From the IMG/VR virus record IMGVR_UViG_3300032325_000464, positions 1 through 64,000 of that record: DNA of 64,000 nt. One strand, 5' to 3'. Source of the stretch: a virus. Shown piece by piece: positions 44,057 through 63,381 of this stretch; position 1 is the stretch's first letter; every line of letters starts with the position of its first letter. Below the pieces are notes generated by a model, which was not told the DNA's origin, ran no database searches, and saw only the letters and a list, made by a program, of their open reading frames with translations. The translations under genes were made by a program, and so were the position numbers.

Positions 44057-44806
44057 ATGAATAAAAAATTTGCTGCAATTAGTACTATCGCACTATTAAC
44101 TACTGGATCTGGGGCTGCATTTGCTCAGATGTCAGATTTGTCCAGTTCAAAAACTGAACAGATAATAACAGAAGTAACAAAACCAGCCCCAATAATTAAC
44201 TCCCCAATAATAAAAGAAGTTCTTTTTTCTGGGCCAGTCAGGTATATAAGCCTAGAGGATGGACCAGTACTTACTTCAGATGCCCCACTTATTGGCTCTG
44301 TTGACTGGATGGCTCAGGAAAAAGCTGCCAAGGATAGACTTAAGCTTGAGGCTCAGAAAAAACAAGACGAGCTAGAAGCAGAGATTTCGAAACTAGAAAA
44401 AATTGCTAGTGATACTAAGACGCTAAATGAAACTTTGATCTTGGTAAAAAAGCAAATTGGCAAAACCCCCTGGGTGTTTTCTGGATCTACTCCAGCAGCC
44501 TGGGATTGTTCAGGCCTAGTTATGTGGACATATGCTCACTTAGGTGTTGACCTAGAGCACAGCGCAACAAAGCAAAGAGTGTCGGGTAAGTTCGTCACTG
44601 AACCCAAAATTGGAGACCTGGTGTCTTTTAATCATCGAAGCTATGGAAGTGCATATCACATTGGAATCTATATAGGTCCTGATGAAATGATACACGCAGG
44701 GGGCAAGCCAGGGGATAGGACCGAAGTACGTTCAATCAAGGGCTGGGCCAAGGGCAATGGTGGTAGCGAGATTACATATACTAGAATTATTGAAACTAAT
44801 AACTAA
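44057..44806 (+). CDS. Secreted NlpC/P60 peptidoglycan endopeptidase
   Basis: Signal peptide, coiled coil, WDCSGLV, HIGIY, MIHA. Confidence 0.92.
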   Translation: MNKKFAAISTIALLTTGSGAAFAQMSDLSSSKTEQIITEVTKPAPIINSPIIKEVLFSGPVRYISLEDGPVLTSDAPLIGSVDWMAQEKAAKDRLKLEAQKKQDELEAEISKLEKIASDTKTLNETLILVKKQIGKTPWVFSGSTPAAWDCSGLVMWTYAHLGVDLEHSATKQRVSGKFVTEPKIGDLVSFNHRSYGSAYHIGIYIGPDEMIHAGGKPGDRTEVRSIKGWAKGNGGSEITYTRIIETNN

Positions 44807-45914: not shown

Positions 45915-46547
45915 TTAACATGGGCAACAGTATCCGCTGCCAGTTACAATACTTCTATTTTGGTATCCACAGTTAGTGCTTATTTCATAGTATCCAACTT
46001 CATAGTAAAGCGATCCGTTAATACATGTTTCACTGTCATAGTAGTTTCCAAAGCTCCACGTTGGCTCACATGCTGGCGGTGGCGGTGGTGGTGGCGTACA
46101 AGAGCAACAATACTGATATGGATAGGTTACTATATCTCTAGTTTCGTAGCCAGTTATGCTACAGTTTCTGAATTCATAGTATCCAGCCTCTGAGTAAAGA
46201 CTTCCATTAATACATTCTTCACGATCCCAATAGTTTCCAAATGTCCAATCTGAACATTCATTTGTTGGAGGTGGTGGTGGAGGTGGTGGAGGTGGTGGTG
46301 CTGAATAAGAGTATAACACAATAGAAATTGATGTTTCATAATCGACTAGTGTCCCACTGGCTATTGAGCTACTTGAAACTGTTCCATTATTACCAGAGCT
46401 TGCTCCGCTAGATGTAGTGGTAGCTTGATCAAAAGTAAGACCAGCAGAAATAATGGCTGATTGTGCTGCTGATGAGCTTAGCCCAGAAAGATTTGGCACA
46501 GTAGTCATGCCCTTAGATGAAAAAAGTCCAGATGATAGCCCAAGCAT
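45915..46547 (-). CDS. PASTA-domain protein with poly-Pro linkers and duplicated Cys-rich modules
   Basis: VPNLSGLSSSAAQSAIISAGL..GTLVD; two poly-Pro runs; two WxFGNY.D.E.CINGSLY.E.GYYE repeats. Confidence 0.75.
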   Translation of the reverse strand: MLGLSSGLFSSKGMTTVPNLSGLSSSAAQSAIISAGLTFDQATTTSSGASSGNNGTVSSSSIASGTLVDYETSISIVLYSYSAPPPPPPPPPPPTNECSDWTFGNYWDREECINGSLYSEAGYYEFRNCSITGYETRDIVTYPYQYCCSCTPPPPPPPACEPTWSFGNYYDSETCINGSLYYEVGYYEISTNCGYQNRSIVTGSGYCCPC

Positions 46548-48855: not shown

Positions 48856-49569
48856 CTAATTAACTGATATATATATTGATTTTATTTTCACTTCGGAATC
48901 AAGATCTGTCCTTATTTGTGGGACAATTCCTGCATTTTTATGTGCCTCTGAAAATATTGCCATGTTATGGGTTATTGACATTTCATAAGTATGCTGATAT
49001 TTTAAATTTGCACAAAATGTTGTGACCGAATCATCTAATCCAAAAAATTGAGATCTCATCCATACTTCTGTATTTGAACTAAAAGTTGTAATCTCAATAT
49101 CATAGGTTATCTGTACTTGAGCACCTACCTTTAGTCCTCTTGTATTTATTTTTCTGGTATCTTTAATGTAAAGACTTACTGAATCTTCTGGTAGAAAATC
49201 TTCGATAGATGCTTCTGAATCTACATAAAGATCAACCCAACCATCTACCCCCCTAGAAGCGCCTGCAGCGGTGGCTTTAGGCTTTTTATTTTTATAAAGT
49301 GCCCAGCCAACATTTTGATTATATTTTGGAAAATACGATTTACCATCTTTACCATCTTTTCCAGGAATCCCGCGCTCACCCCTAGGTCCAGTAATGCTTT
49401 CTCCAGGATCTCCATTTTTTCCAGGATCTCCCTTTGGTCCTATTGGACCTGGAGGGCCTTGAGGACCAGGAACAGCAAAAAATACTCCTTCTTGTGGTGT
49501 TTCGACGGATTGTTTTACTTTTGAGGCATACCCAGATGTGGGGAAATCGATGTTAGATGAAGTTGCCAT
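48856..49569 (-). CDS. Collagen-like virion protein
   Basis: GPQGPPGPIGPKGDPGKNGDPG. Confidence 0.75.
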   Translation of the reverse strand: MATSSNIDFPTSGYASKVKQSVETPQEGVFFAVPGPQGPPGPIGPKGDPGKNGDPGESITGPRGERGIPGKDGKDGKSYFPKYNQNVGWALYKNKKPKATAAGASRGVDGWVDLYVDSEASIEDFLPEDSVSLYIKDTRKINTRGLKVGAQVQITYDIEITTFSSNTEVWMRSQFFGLDDSVTTFCANLKYQHTYEMSITHNMAIFSEAHKNAGIVPQIRTDLDSEVKIKSIYISVN

Positions 49570-53602: not shown

Positions 53603-54168
53603 CTAACTTTTTTGCTTACGCAATTCACCACACTTGACTAGGTCGTGTCCCTTGTTCCATTGCTTACGGTCAAGGTAATAACTCAGAACAGTAGTCTGTT
53701 CGTATTCGCAATTTGAACACTTAGTTTTTCTCCACATTGTTGTTGTTGTCATTAGTTATTTTCCTTTTCTGTTAGTGCGATTGTTAGTGAGGTGATACCG
53801 CTAATGGCTTGGTCAAATTCTTCCCAAGTGTCGAATGTTAGGACTACCATTTTCTAATTGACCCCTTTGCTTTTGCTAATGATGTGAGCATTGACAATTC
53901 ACGCTCAAACTCTGATGTGATGTTCCAATCACTATCTTCTGCTATCTTGAGATAAGCCTCTAGAGTTTTCTCTAGTTGGGCTAATGACATCTTCATAAAA
54001 TCTGATGAAGTAGCGTATCTGTTCATACTAATTACACTCTCCATAAGCCTCGAAGCAGTATTCGCAACATTCCTGCTGGAATTCTTCTACATACACTCTT
54101 GGAGTGTAGTTGTCGCAGATTTCACACATTGCTACATCTGCTACATTTATCTTTAGTAAGTTCATCAT
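53603..54168 (-). CDS. Leftward early operon of four small ORFs
   Basis: 54028-54168 (CxxC..CCxxC), 53844-54026, 53752-53850, 53603-53752; AAGGAG RBS; tight coupling. Confidence 0.65.
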
Positions 54169-54443
54169 TCTGAACTCCTTTCTTTCTAACTACTTATACA
54201 CTATCACCACCTACCGACATTTATGCTCATTTTACTAAACATTTTTATACAAACTTTTGCCCTCTTTTTTGTAGGGTATCTACAAGAACGACACGCCCGA
54301 GTGAGCGCGGGCCTGTGGATAACTATGTGTATAACTCTTTATAAGAACGTTATAAAAAACCCCCTAATTCCTGGCGTGTCGCTTGACAAATGTCGTAGGC
54401 CTATGATAGATTTTTACTAACAACAAAAGAAAAGGATAATCAA

Positions 54444-54858
54444 ATGACAGTAGAAGTAATGTTTCACGATGGTTCAGCAATCTACCCTAGCTATGACCCA
54501 GAACACCGCAAAACTATTTTAGAATTCTACGCTAACCTTTTTGATAAGGGTGAAATTATGTCTTGGAAGGTAATCTAATGATGAGTCGCAAAGACTATGA
54601 GGCAATTGCCGAAATAATCAAAACATACAATCTACAACTTCCAGAAATTACTTTGGAAAGTATTGTGAATGACTTTTGTGAAATGCTAACAGAAGATAAC
54701 CCACGGTTTGACGCTAACCGTTTTCGTGTTGCTGCTATGGAGGTAAACTAATGATGTTTTACAACGGATTCAATCTAATGATTGACCTAATACTAATTGC
54801 TGTTGTGTATGTAATTGCTCACGGCATTGGATACCGCAAAAATAAAACACCATTCTAA
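54444..54858 (+). CDS. Early module 1: three small ORFs
   Basis: 54444-54578, 54578-54751 (MSRKDY..DNPRFD.NRF), 54751-54858 (TM peptide ending KTPF); TAATG coupling. Confidence 0.7.
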
Positions 54859-55020
54859 CGGCGTGTTGATTTGACAGATCCCTCGAAAGAGGGCGCGGGC
54901 CTGTGGATAACCCTGTGAACAACTCCGTTATGAACTTGTTATGAAACACCCCAAAAGTATGCCAGAAATGTCAGTGGTTTGTGATAGGGTTTTTAGTAAG
55001 CCAAAAGAAAGGAATACCAA

Positions 55021-55589
55021 ATGGATAAGATGTGTGTTTACTGCGAGAGTGTTTTCACTAACGATACTATTGTTTGCCACAACTGTAATGAGTATGACGG
55101 AATGATGCCGTTGGAAAAAGCGGTTGACTATCTCAACCTTGACCCTAATGACTTTTACTAAAATGTCAGACCCCTATACTAAGTTTATAGTAATCAGAAA
55201 GGATAACAGATGAAGCAATCAGTAATCACAGACACCACCATAAGCACTATTGTTGCTAAGGCAGAAGATGTCATTGACAGACCTCTAACCTACATGGAGA
55301 ACGCACTTATAGAGTATGTAGTTGACCAGATTCGTTTAGGGTTGGTAGAGAAATGACAATCGAAGAACTAGAAACTTTGATTTACCAAATTGACCTAATG
55401 CTAACTGAAAGTGTTAGCCAACTATTCACAACACCAGAGGAGAAATAAATGGAACTAGGTTTGATTCTTATTTTTATTGCTGTTGGCGTTTCAATTTTTG
55501 TTGGAACTTCGGTTGCCACAATTTTATTTTTGCTACAAGAAAATAACAGACTTGGCGAAGAGCTAGAAAAAAACGAAACCCCATTCTAA
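55021..55589 (+). CDS. Early module 2: four small ORFs
   Basis: 55021-55161 (CxxC..CxxC), 55210-55356, 55353-55448, 55449-55589 (TM peptide ending ETPF); AAAGGA RBSs. Confidence 0.7.
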
Positions 55590-55713
55590 ACGACACGCCC
55601 GAGAGGGCGCGGCCCATCGCAGGATAATAAATAACCTTAAGAATATTTTAAGATCTCCCCCAAAATGTCCTAGGTTAGTGATAAGATAATCTTATTAACG
55701 AAAGGAAACCCCA

Positions 55714-56235
55714 ATGACTAACCATGTAGAGATTTATTCAGAGATTGCAAGTCGTGCAACATTCGGCCAGGTAGAGCAGGCAACTAAGTGGTACCTTGAC
55801 GCAGAGACAGTAGCACGTGAAGTTGCAGCCAACCTAGGCGTGACACTTGAAGTAGGTGCAACTATTGTTTCAGCATTCAGCCCTCGTGAGCGCTGGGCAC
55901 GTAATGTTTCTAATGCTATCAAGTTTTCACTAGGCGAACATGTTACCGCTCTAGGCAATAACATTCGCATGGCTAACGCTGCATTTGACTTAGGCTTCAA
56001 GGCTTTGAATGGTCAGAAGACTAATGCATTTGCTAAGGCTATTGCAGGCAATGAAGAATCAGTTGTGATTGACGTATGGATGTTGCGAGCAGTTGGTATT
56101 GAGAAGAAGACACCTAACCAGTCTGGCTATAACGAACTTGCTAAAGCAGTGACTACTGTTGCAGTTAAGCATGGCATGACACCACGTGCAATGCAAGCCC
56201 TAATCTGGATTGTTGTTAGAGGAAGTGGAGAGTGA
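55714..56235 (+). CDS. Alpha-helical DNA-glycosylase-like (DUF7178-like) protein
   Basis: WY..A, SAFSPRERW..N, KT.AF, VIDVWMLRA, QALIW. Confidence 0.6.
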   Translation: MTNHVEIYSEIASRATFGQVEQATKWYLDAETVAREVAANLGVTLEVGATIVSAFSPRERWARNVSNAIKFSLGEHVTALGNNIRMANAAFDLGFKALNGQKTNAFAKAIAGNEESVVIDVWMLRAVGIEKKTPNQSGYNELAKAVTTVAVKHGMTPRAMQALIWIVVRGSGE

Positions 56236-56272
56236 TTGACAACAAAACCCTAGTATGGGATAATGGTAAGTA

Positions 56273-56407
56273 GTGGAGTATTATATTTGGTTGCCAGTAT
56301 TTGTTTTGTTGTTTTTACTTTTGCTTTTTGCCCTGCTTCCAATTTTTGTTGGCATAATTTTCTTTCTAGAATATTTGGCAGAAATATTTAGCAAAATAAA
56401 AAGCTGA
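56273..56407 (+). CDS. Very hydrophobic membrane peptide
   Basis: MEYYIWLPVFVLLFLLLLFALLPIFVGIIFFLEYLAEIFSKIKS after a TTGACA-N17-GATAAT promoter. Confidence 0.5.
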   Translation: MEYYIWLPVFVLLFLLLLFALLPIFVGIIFFLEYLAEIFSKIKS

Positions 56408-56526
56408 CAGACACTCACCGATCTGGAGGGCGCGGCACTTTTTCTATCAGAAGTCAATTACGTTATGCATTAAAAATCTCCTAGAATATCCCCCAAAATG
56501 TCTGATGGTCATGCTAAGATAAATCT

Positions 56527-56682
56527 ATGAAGCTAGGAAAAGGTAATGAGGCAAGACGTAAGGCAGAAAGCCAAGCGCTATTCTTTACTATGCTCAAAGC
56601 CCCTCACCTAGTAGCAACCCCCAAGAAATACAAAGGAAGCCGTCAGTCTAACAAGGCTAAGGCAATAAAGGAAAGTGAATAA
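56527..56682 (+). CDS. Small basic leaderless protein
   Basis: MKLGKGNEARRK...PKKYKGSRQSNK; ATG 6 nt after TAAGAT. Confidence 0.6.
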   Translation: MKLGKGNEARRKAESQALFFTMLKAPHLVATPKKYKGSRQSNKAKAIKESE

Positions 56683-56822
56683 TGTACAGTTATATCTGTC
56701 AGGATTGTAATCGCTTTATCAACGGAGTTGAGACAATTTACTCCTATGCCCTCAAAAATGTCTGTGGCAGATGTTATGCTATTCAGGCAGGACACCCCTC
56801 AACAAGAAAGCTGGTAAAGTAA
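56682..56822 (+). CDS. Small zinc-finger protein
   Basis: CQDC..CGRC; coupled both sides. Confidence 0.55.
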   Translation: MYSYICQDCNRFINGVETIYSYALKNVCGRCYAIQAGHPSTRKLVK

Positions 56823-57016
56823 TGCCAAAGTATAATGTAGCAGTTCAGTTATCAGGTAATGATGGAAACGCATTCTCAGTAATGGGAGCCGTAAAGTCTG
56901 CCCTCAAAAAAGCTGGAGCAAGTAGAGAAGAACTTGACGAATACGTATCAGACTCAATGTCTGGCGACTATGACAACTTATTGCGTGTAGCAATGGAATG
57001 GGTAAAGGTAAAGTAA
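56822..57016 (+). CDS. Small protein (DGNAF..SGDYDNLL motif)
   Basis: Motif recognised from phage/ICE hypothetical proteins; coupled start. Confidence 0.7.
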   Translation: MPKYNVAVQLSGNDGNAFSVMGAVKSALKKAGASREELDEYVSDSMSGDYDNLLRVAMEWVKVK

Positions 57017-57297
57017 TGGGAATGATGACAGCAATGGACTTGGCAGGTAGCGAAGTCTCATTAGAGCAACAACTATCAATTCACTTTAGTAGCAACTGTT
57101 ATCCACCAATTCCACAACAGATGATTCCAACAGCTATTGCAGCGATTGACGCTTGTTGGGAAGAAGACTATGACTTGATGATACCGTTGCCAGATGGAGT
57201 ATCTTTCAGAGGACAGACTGAAGTGTCTGCTAGAAATGTTGTTGAGTCTTACAGGCTTGACGCCTGGTTGGTTGATTACTACGAAGATGAAGAGTAG
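57016..57297 (+). CDS. Acidic hypothetical protein (H..NCYPPIP)
   Basis: Coupled ORF. Confidence 0.7.
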   Translation: MGMMTAMDLAGSEVSLEQQLSIHFSSNCYPPIPQQMIPTAIAAIDACWEEDYDLMIPLPDGVSFRGQTEVSARNVVESYRLDAWLVDYYEDEE

Positions 57298-57507
57298 CTA
57301 ACGCTGCCCCAGAAATGGGGCGCGGCCCAGGATCAGTCAAAAGTCAAACCGACACGCCCTTAAGAAGATAACAATTTATTCCCCAAATCGTTATAATTAT
57401 TTTGCCTTTGGGGGTAGATAAATGTCGGTGGTTAGTGGTAAAATAAACCTATCAACAAAAGTTGGTAATAAAAACAAAACAGTCCCTCTGGGGCGGAACG
57501 GAAGCAA

Positions 57508-57660
57508 ATGTCAAACGCAACTCTAACTGTTGGCTCACAGTTCACCACTCTAAAGTCTGGAGTATCAGGCACAATTCAGGAAATCGTAAACAACAAGAAC
57601 GGCACTCAGCGTGTTCGCCTTGATGTAAACGGACAGCCACGCTGGACTACTGTAAAGTAA
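57508..57660 (+). CDS. Small beta-barrel (SH3-like) protein
   Basis: MSNATLTVGSQFTTLKSGVSGTIQEI...RWTTVK. Confidence 0.6.
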   Translation: MSNATLTVGSQFTTLKSGVSGTIQEIVNNKNGTQRVRLDVNGQPRWTTVK

Positions 57661-57808
57661 TAAACTAATTATTGTTGTGGCGTTAGACTACATAAAAGGG
57701 TGAATCAGAGTCTAGTTGAGAACCCCTGCCACTAACAATAAATGTCAGACCCTAATGATAAAATAATGAAGTAAACAAAACCCCACAAGTAAAGGAAGCA
57801 ATAAAATT

Positions 57809-58258
57809 ATGGCTAGAACTATGTCAGTAAAAATCCCTGTATCCGCACTAATCTCAGACATTGAGAAGTCTATTGCCAAGATTGACGAAGCAATTACAAA
57901 CTACGCATCAGACCGAAAGAAGTATGAGGTAGATGTTGCCGCATACAAAGAAAGTGTTGCTGAGTTTGTTTCTAATTTCATTAGCAAGAACGCATCAAGC
58001 ATTGGCTATGACTACGAAAGTCTAATCCGTATCAACCACGCTTACAATGGCAAGGTAGAGTTGATACTTGACAAGGACTCCATTGAGGGTTTCCCTGAGA
58101 AGCCAGAAGAGCCAAGCAAGCCAAATGAGAAAGAGTGGTTTGGTCGTGAACACCAGACACGCAAACAAATCCTAGAGCGTAATCTCAAGGTGCTGCGTAT
58201 GACTACACAGGAAGAAGTTTCTGCTAGTTCATACTCCTCAGTAATGGAACTAATCTAA
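57809..58258 (+). CDS. Hypothetical protein
   Basis: AAAGGA RBS; own TGTC promoter. Confidence 0.75.
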   Translation: MARTMSVKIPVSALISDIEKSIAKIDEAITNYASDRKKYEVDVAAYKESVAEFVSNFISKNASSIGYDYESLIRINHAYNGKVELILDKDSIEGFPEKPEEPSKPNEKEWFGREHQTRKQILERNLKVLRMTTQEEVSASSYSSVMELI

Positions 58259-58506
58259 ATAATCAAACAACCTGAGCAAGTTGTAAAACTGCTTCCCGAA
58301 TTGGGGTAGCGACTAGACGGGTAAAATAATTTCGCTCCACATCCCCCTCACAAAAGCTGAAGATCGCAAGATCACAAATACTGAGAGGGGGAAAAGGTGG
58401 GCGCGGCCCCCATAACGAATTGGTAACAAGTTTAAGAAACACTATTAAGAGCCCTTGTAAATGTCAGTGGTTGGCTGTAAAATATAGCTATAACGAAAGG
58501 AACCCC

Positions 58507-59309
58507 ATGGACGAGCAAGCAGAAGAAATCAAACAGGACCTAGCCGACTACTATGCTAACCCACAAGAATACACACTCTTTGACTTTGAGGAAATCTTTC
58601 AGGACAGGGACCCATTTGAATTCCTATAATGTCGTAGGGTCCTGGTAGAATTCAAACAAATAACGAAAGGAAAATAATGAGCTTACTAAATAACATTGGA
58701 TACGTTTCCTATGACGGAAACTATGGAGCTGAAGCGGACCTACTAGTTTTCGACAGCAATGACCTCACTCTACAACAGTGGGAAACCCTAGGTGAGATAA
58801 ACGACAACTCTAGGTATGAGTATGTTGAAGCTATTTTTGCAGGTAAAGACCTATCTGAGTGGGAGGGCTAATGCTACGTACAGATGAGACTTACTGGAAA
58901 ATCAAAGAGTACACAGATGAGGCCAAGGGTATAGCTTGGGACACATGTCACAAAATTTATATTCTTATGGATGACAATCAGGTAGCGCTAATGCGTGAGT
59001 ATGAATATGACCCAATCATCACGTCAGAACAAATAAACCCAGCCGAAATGGCAACGGTTGCAGCTGTTTGGTTTGAAAAGTCTTGTGCACTAAGATTTGT
59101 AAATGCAGTCTACAGTGATACTTCAATTGGACACGAGGGTTTTGTCAACGTCATTGCGCAGTTTGAAGGCGATGAAGAAGAAGACGATGAATATGATGAG
59201 GATGAAGATGAGTAATATTTGGGAGCCAGCTCCAGGTGGAGTCTGGGATAGCTTCTTCCGTGAAGCAGGCTTTGACAATGGAGATAGCGAAGACGACGAA
59301 GACCTGTAG
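58507..59309 (+). CDS. Cluster of four highly acidic small proteins
   Basis: 58507-58629, 58677-58871, 58871-59215 (WDTCHKIY), 59208-59309. Confidence 0.7.
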
Positions 59310-59501
59310 TGCATTCCCTTACTTCCTTTCTGGAATGTACTACCGTCCTGGCCATGACGTAAATCTGGCCACCTTTTGTGCGCGGCCCACTTAACAGATC
59401 CATAACAACTTTAAGAAGAATTAAGATGTTTCCCTAAAACCCCTTGTAAATGTCGGTGGGTAGCTGTAAAATGATACTACCCGAAAAGAAAGGAACCCCC
59501 A

Positions 59502-60005
59502 ATGGGAACCAGAAACCTAACAGTAGTAAAGAATAAAGCAGGGAAAAACAAGATTGCTCAATACGGACAATGGGACGGCTACCCAAGTTATTCAGGTGTT
59601 CAAGCCCTAGCATTTCTAAGAGACGAAGGCAACCAAGCCCTGCTACAAGCAAAGCTAGACCTTGTCCAGTTTGTTGGTGATGAGGAAGTAGATACCCTGT
59701 ATAAGCAGTATGAAACTACCGATTGGGAGAATAAAGATTTCCTAAACGCATACCCTGGACTTCACAGAGATACTGGTGTTGGTATCCTATCAGTAGTTGC
59801 TAACGCTGTTGCTCCTGTCAAGACTGTTGATAACACAGAGTTTGCTAAAGATGAATTGTTTTGTGAAGGTATCTTTGAGGTAGACTTCAAGACTAACAAG
59901 TTTATTACTGTCTATGCTGACAAGAAGGTTGAGTTTGACCTTGCCACTCTACCAACAGATGAAGAATACCTAGCCCAGTGGGAAGTGCAGCAAGTTGCTT
60001 CATAA
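59502..60005 (+). CDS. Phage protein with MGTR...QY.QWDGYP motif
   Basis: Motif recognition; RBS. Confidence 0.75.
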   Translation: MGTRNLTVVKNKAGKNKIAQYGQWDGYPSYSGVQALAFLRDEGNQALLQAKLDLVQFVGDEEVDTLYKQYETTDWENKDFLNAYPGLHRDTGVGILSVVANAVAPVKTVDNTEFAKDELFCEGIFEVDFKTNKFITVYADKKVEFDLATLPTDEEYLAQWEVQQVAS

Positions 60006-60602
60006 TCTAGATACCAAATACCTAACAGGGGACATCGCAAAGGATGTTCAGTTTATAAAAGATAACCTTAGTATTGATGACGAAGAGTTCTTTAGAAGGG
60101 CTATGGCTAACATAATGTCTGAGGGTAATGCTAGAATTGACTTACTTACTGGAGAGGAACTAAACAAACTATGAAGAAAACTTGGCAAGTAGAGTATAGT
60201 GCTACCTATTGGGTAGAAGCAGAAACAGAAGATGAAGCAATTGAATTGGCTATTGAATCACACGCTGACCTACCAGACGGTAGTTGGGAAGCAATGATTG
60301 ACCCCTATGATAGCAACAACTTCAATACGCTAGGAGAAAAGTGATTATCGAATGCCCCAACCATGAGGGCAACTTTGACTGTACACCATTTTGCAATTTG
60401 TGTGAAGGAGAACAAGAGTATGTCAGTGAGTGAACTAGAACAAATCGGGTATGAAGAAGGAATGAAGGATACCTATGCTTACATTATCAATACTATACGT
60501 AAGGCAATAGAGAATCCTTCACTTGATGTCATACCGTCAAAAATGGCACTACAAGTCCTGTTGGCAAGTTTAGAAGCTGACAGGGAAGAGAGCACGGTCT
60601 AA
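59995..60602 (+). CDS. Four small coupled ORFs
   Basis: 59995-60174, 60171-60344 (VEAETEDEA), 60341-60433 (C-P-H/C..CxxC), 60420-60602. Confidence 0.6.
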
Positions 60603-60752
60603 GCTCCCCGAAAGGGGCGCGGCCCCAATATAACAGATCTATAACAACTTTAAGAACCTTAAGAATGTTTCCCCAGATGGCTTGACATTGTCGGTGGGTC
60701 ATGGGATAATAGTCTTACTAAACATTCACCCCTAAAAGAAAGTTGAACACAA

Positions 60753-61766
60753 ATGGCTCATGACCTAGAATCCGCAAACGGCCAGACTGCTTTTGCTTCA
60801 TTGCGACAGCCAGCTTGGCATGGTCTTGGAACTGTTTTCCAAGACGAGGTAGACACATCAGAAATGTTGTCTCTGGCTCACCTAAACGATTGGAACGTCC
60901 GTCTTGAAGATGTAGAGACTCCAGAGGGTTTCAACAGCGACAAGTCTTATTCATTCGTGACAAGAACTAACCCATTCGACAGAAACACTAACGACATTCT
61001 TGGTGTTGTTGGTGAACGCTATGTCCCTCTTCAGAATGAGGACTTATTTTCATTCGGAGACAACCTGCTAGACGGCGGAGGTCGTTGGGAAACTGCTGGC
61101 TCTATCAAGGGTGGGCGTGTTGTCTTTGGCTCTATCGCATTGGATAACTCAATTACCCTAGACCCAAATGGCATTGCTGATAAGATTGATAACTATCTTC
61201 TAATCAACACTAGCCACGACGGCTCTATTGCGATTCAGGCTTCTATCACACCTGTTCGTGTTGTTTGTGCCAACACTCTAAACCTTGCTCTATCTTCATT
61301 CAAGGGCAAGAAAGATGTCAAGCAAACTTTCAAGATTCGCCACACACAGACTGCCGAAGGTAAAATTGCGGTTGCTCGTGAGGCTCTTGGACTTGCTCAC
61401 AAATACATTGACGAGTTCTCAACTATGGCTAACGAAATGATTCAGACTGAAATTACTAAGGCTCAGTTTGATAAGATTGTTGAACTTGCCTACCCTGCCC
61501 CTGCTAAGGACGCCAAGGGTTCACAGAAAAAGTATGACAGCAAAATTGATTTGCTTCAGTCTATTTATGTTGGCGATTTCAATAACACCATTAGCGGAAC
61601 TGCTTGGGGTGCTTTCAATGCTCTAACCGAAAGACTAGACTGGTATCGCAATTCCCGAGGCGGAAAGAACGAAAGCATTCTTGCTTCTGCTTCTGGCTTT
61701 GACCCAATGATAAACGCTGAGAAGAATCGTTTGATGAAAGTTGTTCGCCAAGCCGTAATGGCATAA
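60753..61766 (+). CDS. DUF932 phage/plasmid-like protein
   Basis: AWHGLG, LGVVG.RY.PLQN, ETAGS..GG, SHDGS, TPVRVVCANTL, IRHT, GTAWGAFNA. Confidence 0.88.
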   Translation: MAHDLESANGQTAFASLRQPAWHGLGTVFQDEVDTSEMLSLAHLNDWNVRLEDVETPEGFNSDKSYSFVTRTNPFDRNTNDILGVVGERYVPLQNEDLFSFGDNLLDGGGRWETAGSIKGGRVVFGSIALDNSITLDPNGIADKIDNYLLINTSHDGSIAIQASITPVRVVCANTLNLALSSFKGKKDVKQTFKIRHTQTAEGKIAVAREALGLAHKYIDEFSTMANEMIQTEITKAQFDKIVELAYPAPAKDAKGSQKKYDSKIDLLQSIYVGDFNNTISGTAWGAFNALTERLDWYRNSRGGKNESILASASGFDPMINAEKNRLMKVVRQAVMA

Positions 61767-61929
61767 GCGACACGCAGACCTCCTGGCTTGACAGCTGGGA
61801 GGATCTGTGGCGCGGCCCCCTTATCACTAATAAGATATTAACTTATAAAAAACCTATTAAGAAGTCCTTGACTTTTTCCCCAAAACGTGAGAGAATATAT
61901 TTATCAAACCATTCAACCCTAGGAGATAA

Positions 61930-62436
61930 ATGCCTTATTTCAAAGTACAAAGAGAATATACTAACTGGGAACAGATTACAGTTGAAGCTGATTCAAAAGA
62001 GCATGCAGAAGAGCTTGCAGAAGATGATGAGATATGGGATAATGCCTATGATGTAAACTCATATAACTACACTGGAGATACATGGGTAGGAGAAGCAGAT
62101 GAGTAAAAAGCACACGCATTACTATACTTATGGAGCCTGCACATGGTGCGGTAAGAAAATAAATAAAGGATTGGGCGTAGACCTATACAAGGGAAAGAGA
62201 GTCTAATGCAGATTTATGCTGACAAGAAGCCTAGCGTAAAAGATACTACTTGGACCAGGATCTATCACTACAACACCGTCCAGGTTATGGAGTCCGATCG
62301 CTACTACGACTTTTATAAGTTAGTTATTGATGGCCAGAGACCTAAGTATTTCTTTGGTGAGGCAGCGTGGATGGATTGCCAGAGAGCAGCTGTTGACAAA
62401 GTAGGCCTTTCAGGCTATAATATATTTAGAAGATAA
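61930..62436 (+). CDS. Three small ORFs
   Basis: 61930-62106 (VEADSKEHA), 62099-62206 (H.H..CxxC), 62206-62436; TTGACT-N17-GAGAAT promoter. Confidence 0.6.
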
Positions 62437-62457: not shown

Positions 62458-62976
62458 ATGCACGTATTACAATACATAGCAGTACAATCAGATGACCAAG
62501 ACATGGCCTTTCGTACAGTCAAAGACACATTAGAATCAGAGCTGGGTGGTATTGAATCTACGACTAACTCTTGGTTTGATTGGTTTGTAGCAGGTGGTGG
62601 TAGATTTGTAGAGGGCGACCCATATAAAGAATCTACTAATAATATAATCTCATATGATGAAGACCCTAAGACGTTTCTCAAACAGGTTGAGGTTTCTATT
62701 GAATCTCGTATGGATGAGTTCAGGGCCTATCGCAAACAGTTTGAGGAAAAGAATGTTGACCTCAATGATAAGTTAGATAACTATAAAGGTATCATGAACT
62801 ATGATTTTGAGCTGTACCCTTTGAAAAAGATGATTGATATGATTCAGGGTACATGGGATTTCAATTCCTACTTCTATGACATGCACCACGCCAGTACTAA
62901 CCCTGAACACATGTATAAGTCTATTGACACAGGCAACAAGAACTGGTATGCTGTACCTGTAGACTTTCACTTCTAA
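62458..62976 (+). CDS. Phage protein (WFDWFV.GGR..VDFH motif)
   Basis: Motif recognition. Confidence 0.75.
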   Translation: MHVLQYIAVQSDDQDMAFRTVKDTLESELGGIESTTNSWFDWFVAGGGRFVEGDPYKESTNNIISYDEDPKTFLKQVEVSIESRMDEFRAYRKQFEEKNVDLNDKLDNYKGIMNYDFELYPLKKMIDMIQGTWDFNSYFYDMHHASTNPEHMYKSIDTGNKNWYAVPVDFHF

Positions 62977-62985
62977 GGAGACCAA

Positions 62986-63381
62986 ATGACTAACTATGTA
63001 TCACTAACTTGGAAAGAATGGCAAGAGCGCTTCAAGCCTATCAAGAATCATTTTGCTAAGAACGACCCAGACCTAGAGATGTTTGAGACTTATGGCGAAG
63101 AGGTAGATTTTGTTATCTCTAAAGCCGAGGAAAATAAAGTTTGGACTTGGGGAGATGGAGACTTTGCTAGCTACATTAGCAATGGCTATCACTATGTAAA
63201 TAGGATTGGCTATTATGTTTGTGAGGTTCCTTATGACGAGGATACCGAATACGAAATAATCATAAGTACCGAAGAAGAGTGTAAGTGCTATCTTGAAGAC
63301 GGCTATGACGACGGAGAGTATGGACGCTCAGACTGTGAAGAATGTGAGGGTAGTGGGTATGTCACAAGATACAATGATTAG
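62986..63381 (+). CDS. Phage protein (FETYG..GYHYVNRIGY) with C-terminal zinc ribbon
   Basis: AAGGAG RBS; CEECEGSG. Confidence 0.75.
   Translation: MTNYVSLTWKEWQERFKPIKNHFAKNDPDLEMFETYGEEVDFVISKAEENKVWTWGDGDFASYISNGYHYVNRIGYYVCEVPYDEDTEYEIIISTEEECKCYLEDGYDDGEYGRSDCEECEGSGYVTRYND

Follow-up and report, generated by a model that had tools for sequence, protein, structure and literature searches.

The DNA analysed here (the window) covers positions 1 to 64,000 of a viral contig of 77,957 bp from IMG/VR (record IMGVR_UViG_3300032325_000464, referred to as G000), which has a G+C content of 39% and an estimated completeness of about 69%. We found that a block of small genes in this window carries 14 promoters in which a TGTC box stands 12 nt upstream of the -10 element, and that this arrangement matches the promoters activated by PafBC, the WYL-type DNA damage sensor of actinobacteria. 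We propose that, across a large clade of uncultured actinophages that are abundant, low in G+C and probably of freshwater origin, recognition of the -35 element at host-takeover genes may have given way to the "sigma adaptation" exerted by PafBC of the host; the single-stranded DNA (ssDNA) alarm of the cell, set off by phage DNA as it enters or replicates, would then act as an on-switch or amplifier of the first phage genes. We assign this reading a probability of roughly 0.45. The narrower claim that the PafBC of the host reads the TGTC box appears to us evenly balanced; the evidence for it is the identity of the motif.

A sequence-only reading of the window had reported thirteen exact copies of TGTC-N12-TANNNT and a fourteenth at 60689 with the variant -10 GATAAT, and both its coordinates and all the example sequences it quoted proved to be correct. 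Twelve of the exact sites are on the plus strand (54391 to 60116), and one exact site on the minus strand (54219) leads leftward from the same junction as the first plus-strand unit. Over the whole window the pattern occurs 28 times, compared with 11.6 +/- 3.3 in shuffled sequences, and none of 100 shuffles reached 28. All 14 sites fall within one block of small genes, and a start codon, in most cases preceded by a Shine-Dalgarno sequence of the AAAGGA type, lies 7-63 nt past each of them. Three further motif matches, at 58073 and 58806 on the minus strand and at 53829 on the plus strand, were dismissed as promoters; they look like chance, since they have neither the flanking AA nor a suitably placed gene start. 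We take the 14 sites to be real promoters, and the gene architecture suggests that the block is probably a host-takeover or early module. The promoters are listed below, with TGn denoting an extended -10.

54198-54219, minus strand: TGTC-type promoter, TGTCGG-N10-TAGTGT with TGn, leading leftward into small open reading frames (ORFs), ATG at 54168.
54383-54412, plus strand: dual promoter of the first rightward unit, TTGACA-18 nt-TAGATT together with TGTCGT at 54391.
54969-54990, plus strand: TGTC-type promoter, TGTCAG-N10-TAGGGT with TGn, ATG at 55021.
55164-55185, plus strand: TGTC-type promoter, TGTCAG-N10-TAAGTT without TGn, ATG at 55210.
55666-55687, plus strand: TGTC-type promoter, TGTCCT-N10-TAAGAT with TGn, preceding the DUF7178 gene (55714-56235).
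56499-56520, plus strand: TGTC-type promoter, TGTCTG-N10-TAAGAT, ATG at 56527, 7 nt past the -10; a leaderless mRNA with a 51-aa ORF is predicted.
56759-56780, plus strand: TGTC-type promoter, TGTCTG-N10-TATGCT with TGn, within the end of the preceding small ORF.
57423-57444, plus strand: TGTC-type promoter, TGTCGGTGG-N7-TAAAAT with TGn, ATG at 57508.
57743-57764, plus strand: TGTC-type promoter, TGTCAG-N10-TAAAAT with TGn, ATG at 57809.
58462-58483, plus strand: TGTC-type promoter, TGTCAGTGG-N7-TAAAAT, with a weak TTGTAA at the -35 position.
58630-58651, plus strand: TGTC-type promoter, TGTCGT-N10-TAGAAT with TGn, ATG at 58677.
59451-59472, plus strand: TGTC-type promoter, TGTCGGTGG-N7-TAAAAT, with a weak TTGTAA at the -35 position, ATG at 59502.
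60116-60137, plus strand: TGTC-type promoter, TGTCTG-N10-TAGAAT with TGn, ATG at 60171.
60682-60710, plus strand: dual promoter of the DUF932 gene, TTGACA-17 nt-GATAAT together with TGTCGGTGG at 60689; the orthologous promoter is retained in most relatives.

Using the DUF932 protein, 39 related IMG/VR loci (L001-L039) were fetched at 66-96% identity. They contain up to 31 copies of the motif per locus on the gene strand versus 0-7 on the other strand. In G000, and likewise in G001 and G005, which are complete genomes, the sites are packed into a single block of 10-15 kb whose strand is opposite to that of the remaining genome; outside this block the motif occurs at chance level. In a frequency matrix of 480 unique sites, the informative positions are confined to (A/T)AAA-TGTC-nG-W-S-S, TGn and TAnAAT, and there is no information at the -35 position. 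The AA ahead of TGTC is found in about 80% of the sites clade-wide. When sites were scored on every position except the TGTC letters, 398 of 419 had TGTC, and one-mismatch variants were at background. AATGTC-N12-TAnWWT occurs at 243 sites, whereas no other spacing between N8 and N17 yields more than 14. Moreover, with unbiased anchors consisting of a -10, a ribosome site and a start codon, TGTC was found at offset -16 in 24.6% and TTGAC at the -35 position in about 10%. The TGTC motif is under strong selection.

The motif reaches well beyond these loci. Across IMG/VR, AATGTCRGTGG-N7-TANAAT was found in at least 119 loci, many of them with several matches, whereas the off-spacing control AATGTCRGTGG-N8-TANAAT gave 36 loci with one match each. 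Since nearly all of the N7 loci have 34-44% G+C and strand-clustered matches, and some of their proteins are about 50-70% identical to those of this phage family, we conclude from these comparisons that the TGTC promoter class marks a large and diverse clade. Two isolate-type IMG/VR records (L235 and L247) were considered as host promoters and rejected, as their matches look like chance and have no gene downstream.

One might ask whether recently duplicated promoter cassettes, or chance, could account for the repeated motif, leaving TGTC itself without a function. The intergenic modules do share other repeats, for example ttaagaa stretches and the GCGCGGCC element. However, the flanks and the spacer are randomised while TGTC and the -10 are fixed, the motif recurs in 39 closely related loci and in at least 78 that are more distant, it keeps to one strand and one block, and no shuffle reaches its count, which makes this explanation extremely improbable.

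The -10 of the clade has the consensus TAnAAT and is of the ordinary sigma-A type. It is extended by TGn in 11 of the 14 sites of G000 and, in two clade-wide site sets, in 41% of 482 and 53% of 734 sites. About half of the TGTC sites of the clade have neither TGn nor a -35. Among 363 unique TGTC sites from L001-L039, the first start codon that opens an ORF lies 6-7 nt past the -10 in 57 cases, and most of the remaining start codons lie 22-31 nt past it. From this bimodal distribution, leaderless and short-leader mRNAs are predicted, which would fit actinobacterial biology. The same distances are indirect but good evidence that TANNNT is the true -10, with the start site 6-7 nt downstream.

A -35 is absent from 12 of the 14 sites in G000 and, judged by a match of at least five of six bases to TTGACA, from 79-83% of the sites clade-wide. 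It had already been noticed from the sequence alone that most sites have no good -35, and indeed a full TTGACA is found only at 54391 (18 nt) and 60689 (17 nt). A second promoter class in the block consists of canonical promoters.

56236-56264, plus strand: canonical promoter TTGACA-17-GATAAT without TGTC, of the second class in the block.
62393-62421, plus strand: canonical promoter TTGACA-17-TATAAT (12 of 12 bases) without TGTC, preceding a conserved 172-aa gene.
62924-62952, plus strand: canonical promoter TTGACA-17-TATGCT without TGTC, preceding a conserved 131-aa gene.

The two classes share the block in every phage examined, and in L021 one clear TTGACA promoter heads 30 TGTC promoters. 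Most relatives carry TGTC as well as TTGACA at the orthologous DUF932 promoter; in L006, L017 and L019 TTGACA was kept and TGTC lost, and in L021 TGTC was kept and the -35 lost. The loci L019-L021 and L036 have almost exclusively TGTC promoters, and the more distant relatives L032-L037 have mostly canonical promoters and few TGTC. The rigid phasing, together with the loss of either the box or the -35 at orthologous promoters, indicates that the TGTC box is an upstream activating element which is able to replace the -35 and is read together with RNA polymerase.

A different role of the box is doubtful but has to be considered. The host sigma-A holoenzyme, with RbpA and CarD, might suffice by means of the -10 or extended -10, and TGTC might be the operator of a phage or host repressor that shuts off the block, or a contact of another host factor; the cassette would then be selected as a whole, hence the phasing. 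Actinobacterial promoters commonly need only a -10, and phages often have operators for early shut-off that overlap a promoter. The frequency of TGn in G000 and in the clade would agree with this, as would the sites, about a fifth, in which the TGTC box and a -35 occur together. However, an operator needs no phasing with the -10 that is exact to one base pair over hundreds of diverged promoters. The half of the clade sites with neither TGn nor -35 would be weak unaided, and TGTC or the -35 was lost at orthologous promoters as if they were interchangeable activating elements. Moreover, no repressor candidate was detected.

The genes behind the second and third canonical promoters, encoding proteins of 172 aa (62458-62976, plus strand) and 131 aa (62986-63381, plus strand), are kept as a pair in 27-28 of the 39 relatives. 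Their AlphaFold models are confident, with predicted local distance difference test (pLDDT) values of 90.0 and 88.5. No match to a known fold was found for them in the PDB (Foldseek E > 0.2), and VIA-align gave Z 3.6 (69 residues at a root-mean-square deviation of 4.2 A) and Z 2.8 (45 residues at 2.7 A) for the pair; these matches are too weak to identify either protein or to bear on whether the folds bind DNA. Three cysteines of the 131-aa protein are nearly invariant.

The published in vivo consensus of PafBC promoters is tGTCgg(N10)tA(N3)T, with the 5' element at -23 to -28 and no -35 (PMC8635444), in agreement with the consensus and geometry that the sequence-only reading had given. The phage motif equals this consensus in its core sequence and, to the base, in its spacing. 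PafBC (RecA-NDp) promoters and the phage sites share the GTC within TGTC, the N10 between TGTCnn and TANNNT, and the position of the box at about -28 to -23, as well as the ordinary sigma-A -10, the mostly missing -35 and the actinobacterial host setting. It has been shown that R46 and R50 of PafB read two guanines of the GTC triplet, and that the methyl group of its thymine is read by a hydrophobic pocket, with G, T and C all in contact with PafB; conservation of the triplet among actinobacteria is nearly absolute, and the flanking letters of the M. smegmatis consensus are conserved to 50% or less (PMC8635444). The RecA-NDp motif reaches beyond mycobacteria (PMC8223512). Since three or four fixed letters match at one exact offset, it is unlikely that the agreement between box and PafBC element is a coincidence, even allowing for many comparable motifs. 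To our knowledge, there is no other actinobacterial system with an element at the -26 position.

That the host is an actinobacterium is well supported by the WhiB gene, which is present in all four complete relatives (93-117 kb), and by the kinship with Streptomyces phages. WhiB is used in the literature as a marker for calling actinophages (PMC10914622). The PASTA and NlpC/P60 proteins of the phage point in the same direction. The portal protein of G000 is 47% identical to that of 120-135-kb Streptomyces phages of the family Stanwilliamsviridae, and its DUF932 protein is 55% identical to that of Streptomyces Stanwilliamsviridae phages. A near-identity search in cultured phages returned no close match. 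These comparisons place the phage among uncultured low-GC actinophages, as a distant relative of the Streptomyces Stanwilliamsviridae, and its host is probably a low-GC aquatic actinobacterium. Homologue searches with the WhiB of the relatives and with the NlpC/P60 protein, as a lead to the host, returned phage relatives alone. The phage GDP-mannose dehydratase matched genome contigs at 57-65% identity, spread over many phyla.

In the proposed mechanism, RNA polymerase would use an ordinary sigma-A -10, mostly with TGn, and the AA-TGTC box 12 nt upstream (about -28 to -25) would replace the -35. PafBC joins promoter-bound RNA polymerase with sigma-A only once it is loaded with ssDNA (PMC11804915). 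The loaded PafBC would insert between domain 4 of sigma-A and the DNA and read the GTC triplet, which is the step termed sigma adaptation. The ssDNA may arise when nucleases attack the linear DNA as it enters, or during the first replication, and the block would thereby be boosted. The extended -10 and the occasional -35 elements would provide a basal level independent of PafBC, and transcription from 6-7 nt past the -10 would give mRNAs that have either no leader or a short one with a Shine-Dalgarno sequence. The early timing of the block, the presence of PafBC in the host and its role as the reader are inferences of this scheme.

Several observations weigh against PafBC as the reader. Among the clade TGTC sites, 17-21% also have a TTGACA with five or six matching bases at 17-18 nt. 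In many bacteria a TGn extended -10, as in 11 of the 14 sites, removes the need for an upstream element. Many phage sites add an extended -10, and about a fifth add a -35, which promoters of the PafBC type are described as lacking. The first T, invariant in the phage motif, is conserved to 50% or less in the consensus of M. smegmatis. The AA upstream of the box is conserved in the phage, unlike in the M. smegmatis consensus, and the base after TGTC is A in 38%, T in 31% and G in 22% of the phage sites, versus g in M. smegmatis; the second position after TGTC is G in 75%. Moreover, the ssDNA requirement of PafBC is awkward for the very first genes. The related Streptomyces phage Jay2Jay, whose host is known to have PafBC, has promoters with a TTGyAy -35 in which the box is only TGyC, and TGTC is found in 4-5 of about 11-15 promoters. 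Finally, GTC-N12-TANNNT gave 0 and 1 matches in the DUF932-bearing right arms of the M. smegmatis phages ChrisnMich and Athena (L297 and L298). The phage sites differ from PafBC promoters also in their setting, as they lie on a lytic-type genome in 14-31 copies and precede small genes of unknown function instead of DNA-repair genes.

We had considered whether the DUF932-bearing early arms of cluster B-type mycobacteriophages share the motif, and rejected this because there was no enrichment in ChrisnMich and Athena. Their counts argue that the TGTC wiring is specific to this clade and not a general habit of actinophages. The early genes of Jay2Jay resemble the block in layout. In both, as in the terminal-repeat host-takeover module of the large lytic phage SPO1, there are many small genes, and each unit has its own promoter and a hairpin boundary. 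Jay2Jay shares DUF932 with this phage, and its terminal-repeat early genes (L040, 1-11000, minus strand) have a GC hairpin and a conserved CCGGACA box followed by the promoter, namely TTGyAy, a 17-nt spacer starting with nTGyC, and TGnTAGACT. They differ from those of the present clade in the -35, the 17-nt spacer, the TGnTAGACT and the TGyC at the position of the box, whereas the latter has a fixed TGTC and, for the most part, no -35. The Jay2Jay promoter cassette looks ancestral, or sister, to that of this clade.

As an alternative to host PafBC, an activator made by the phage might read the box in the manner of MotA/AsiA of T4. The canonical TTGACA promoters would fire first with sigma-A; a small product or a virion protein would then bind the box at -26 and recruit or remodel sigma-A at the promoters without a -35, and the TGTC class would be "middle" and not immediate-early. 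The presence of both promoter classes in the block of every phage examined (56236, 62393 and 62924 in G000; L021) would fit this order of events, and the block encodes a wealth of small proteins of unknown function, any of which might be the activator. The architecture, a -10 with an upstream box in place of the -35, is that of T4 middle promoters, and the analogy has been pointed out before (PMC8635444). T4 middle promoters combine the MotA box with a sigma-70 -10 ("sigma appropriation" by AsiA/MotA), and they share with the phage sites the normal -10, the box replacing the -35 and the coexistence with canonical early promoters. They differ in that the T4 box is TTTGCTTTA at -30 and not TGTC at -26. 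Moreover, unlike in T4, a MotA/AsiA-like or any other DNA-binding protein was not detected here, and the phage box equals the site of a host activator.

The searches for such a reader covered the 78-kb contig and the four complete relatives. There were no matches to WYL, HTH_PafC or sigma70_r2, and for HTH_11 nothing was above the cut-off. The suggestion made from the sequence alone, that the phage may encode its own WYL activator outside the window, therefore gained no support, as neither a WYL, an HTH_PafC nor a sigma gene was found in these genomes. Among the approximately 25 early ORFs, neither Pfam nor PHROG gave a hint of DNA binding, and no helix-turn-helix, WYL, sigma or other DNA-binding domain was detected in the early ORFs or in the four complete relatives. 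An alternative or phage sigma factor was rejected as the reader, as these searches found no sigma gene, the -10 is of the sigma-A type and the 12-nt gap is too short for a -35. In addition, the box stays invariant among relatives with no more than about 50% identity in their shared proteins, and for this reason a highly conserved host reader is a better fit than a phage protein that co-evolves with its sites. That box and spacing exactly equal those of PafBC would have to be explained by coincidence or by an undetected protein that mimics PafB. Taken together, we regard a phage-made activator as unlikely.

Other ssDNA-sensing activators follow the same logic as host PafBC. DriD of Caulobacter and the WYL regulators of Acinetobacter and other Moraxellaceae, which are WYL activators of SOS-independent damage responses, switch on a regulon in this way. 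They differ in phylum, in their DNA sites and in the mode of contact with RNA polymerase, and are not candidates for the host of this phage.

In the open literature we found no description of phage promoters of the PafBC type. A 2025 paper, as cited in PMC12848934, links PafBC to mycobacteriophage resistance. If our reading is true, this would be the first virus with a regulon wired to a WYL-type damage sensor, and an alarm that protects the DNA of the host would have been turned into the ignition key of the phage. Sigma adaptation would extend from some 150 mycobacterial repair genes to the control of phage genes, and hundreds of natural PafBC-type promoters of diverse sequence would become available for dissecting the -26 element. 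It would also be predicted that DNA damage, or defence by nucleases that produce ssDNA, helps these phages and does not hinder them. Should a phage protein turn out to be the reader, the block would hold a new factor that redirects sigma-A and copies the DNA specificity of PafB. With either reader, the promoter class is well defined and abundant in aquatic viromes.

The units of the block are also marked by a second repeated element.

54305-61817, plus strand only: GCGCGG(C/G)C in eight copies, at 54305, 54893, 55607, 57320, 58401, 59380, 60617 and 61810.

All eight copies are in the block, versus 0.33 expected. Most of them are found behind a short variable hairpin, past the stop codon of a unit and 60-90 nt ahead of the next promoter, with no U-tract. 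They are probably either terminators of an actinobacterial style that lacks the U-tract or a near-palindromic protein site (GGGGC-GCG-GCCCC) that bounds the units. The hairpin and CCGGACA box of Jay2Jay are the analogue of this element. An Rfam search of the block gave nothing meaningful. Directly past the first two GCGCGGGC elements, the perfect DnaA-box sequence TGTGGATAA is found at 54314-54322 and 54902-54910 (plus strand), and each copy is followed by a second box-like sequence, TGTGTATAA or TGTGAACAA.

G000 also encodes the alpha subunit of DNA polymerase III, a prohead protease, and proteins with PASTA and NlpC/P60 domains. Three genes of the window have functions tied to the Gram-positive cell wall.

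45915-46547, minus strand: PASTA-domain protein.
44057-44806, plus strand: NlpC/P60 peptidoglycan hydrolase, on the strand opposite to its neighbour genes.
48856-49569, minus strand: collagen-repeat protein.

Beyond the window, positions 64001-77957 of G000 (L041) contain a sugar-modifying cluster with a GDP-mannose 4,6-dehydratase and a 643-aa two-domain glycosyltransferase. The same region shows weak matches to sulfotransferase-like and Stealth-like proteins, and it encodes an Hsp20 and five tRNAs (Arg, Lys, Leu, Ile and Met).

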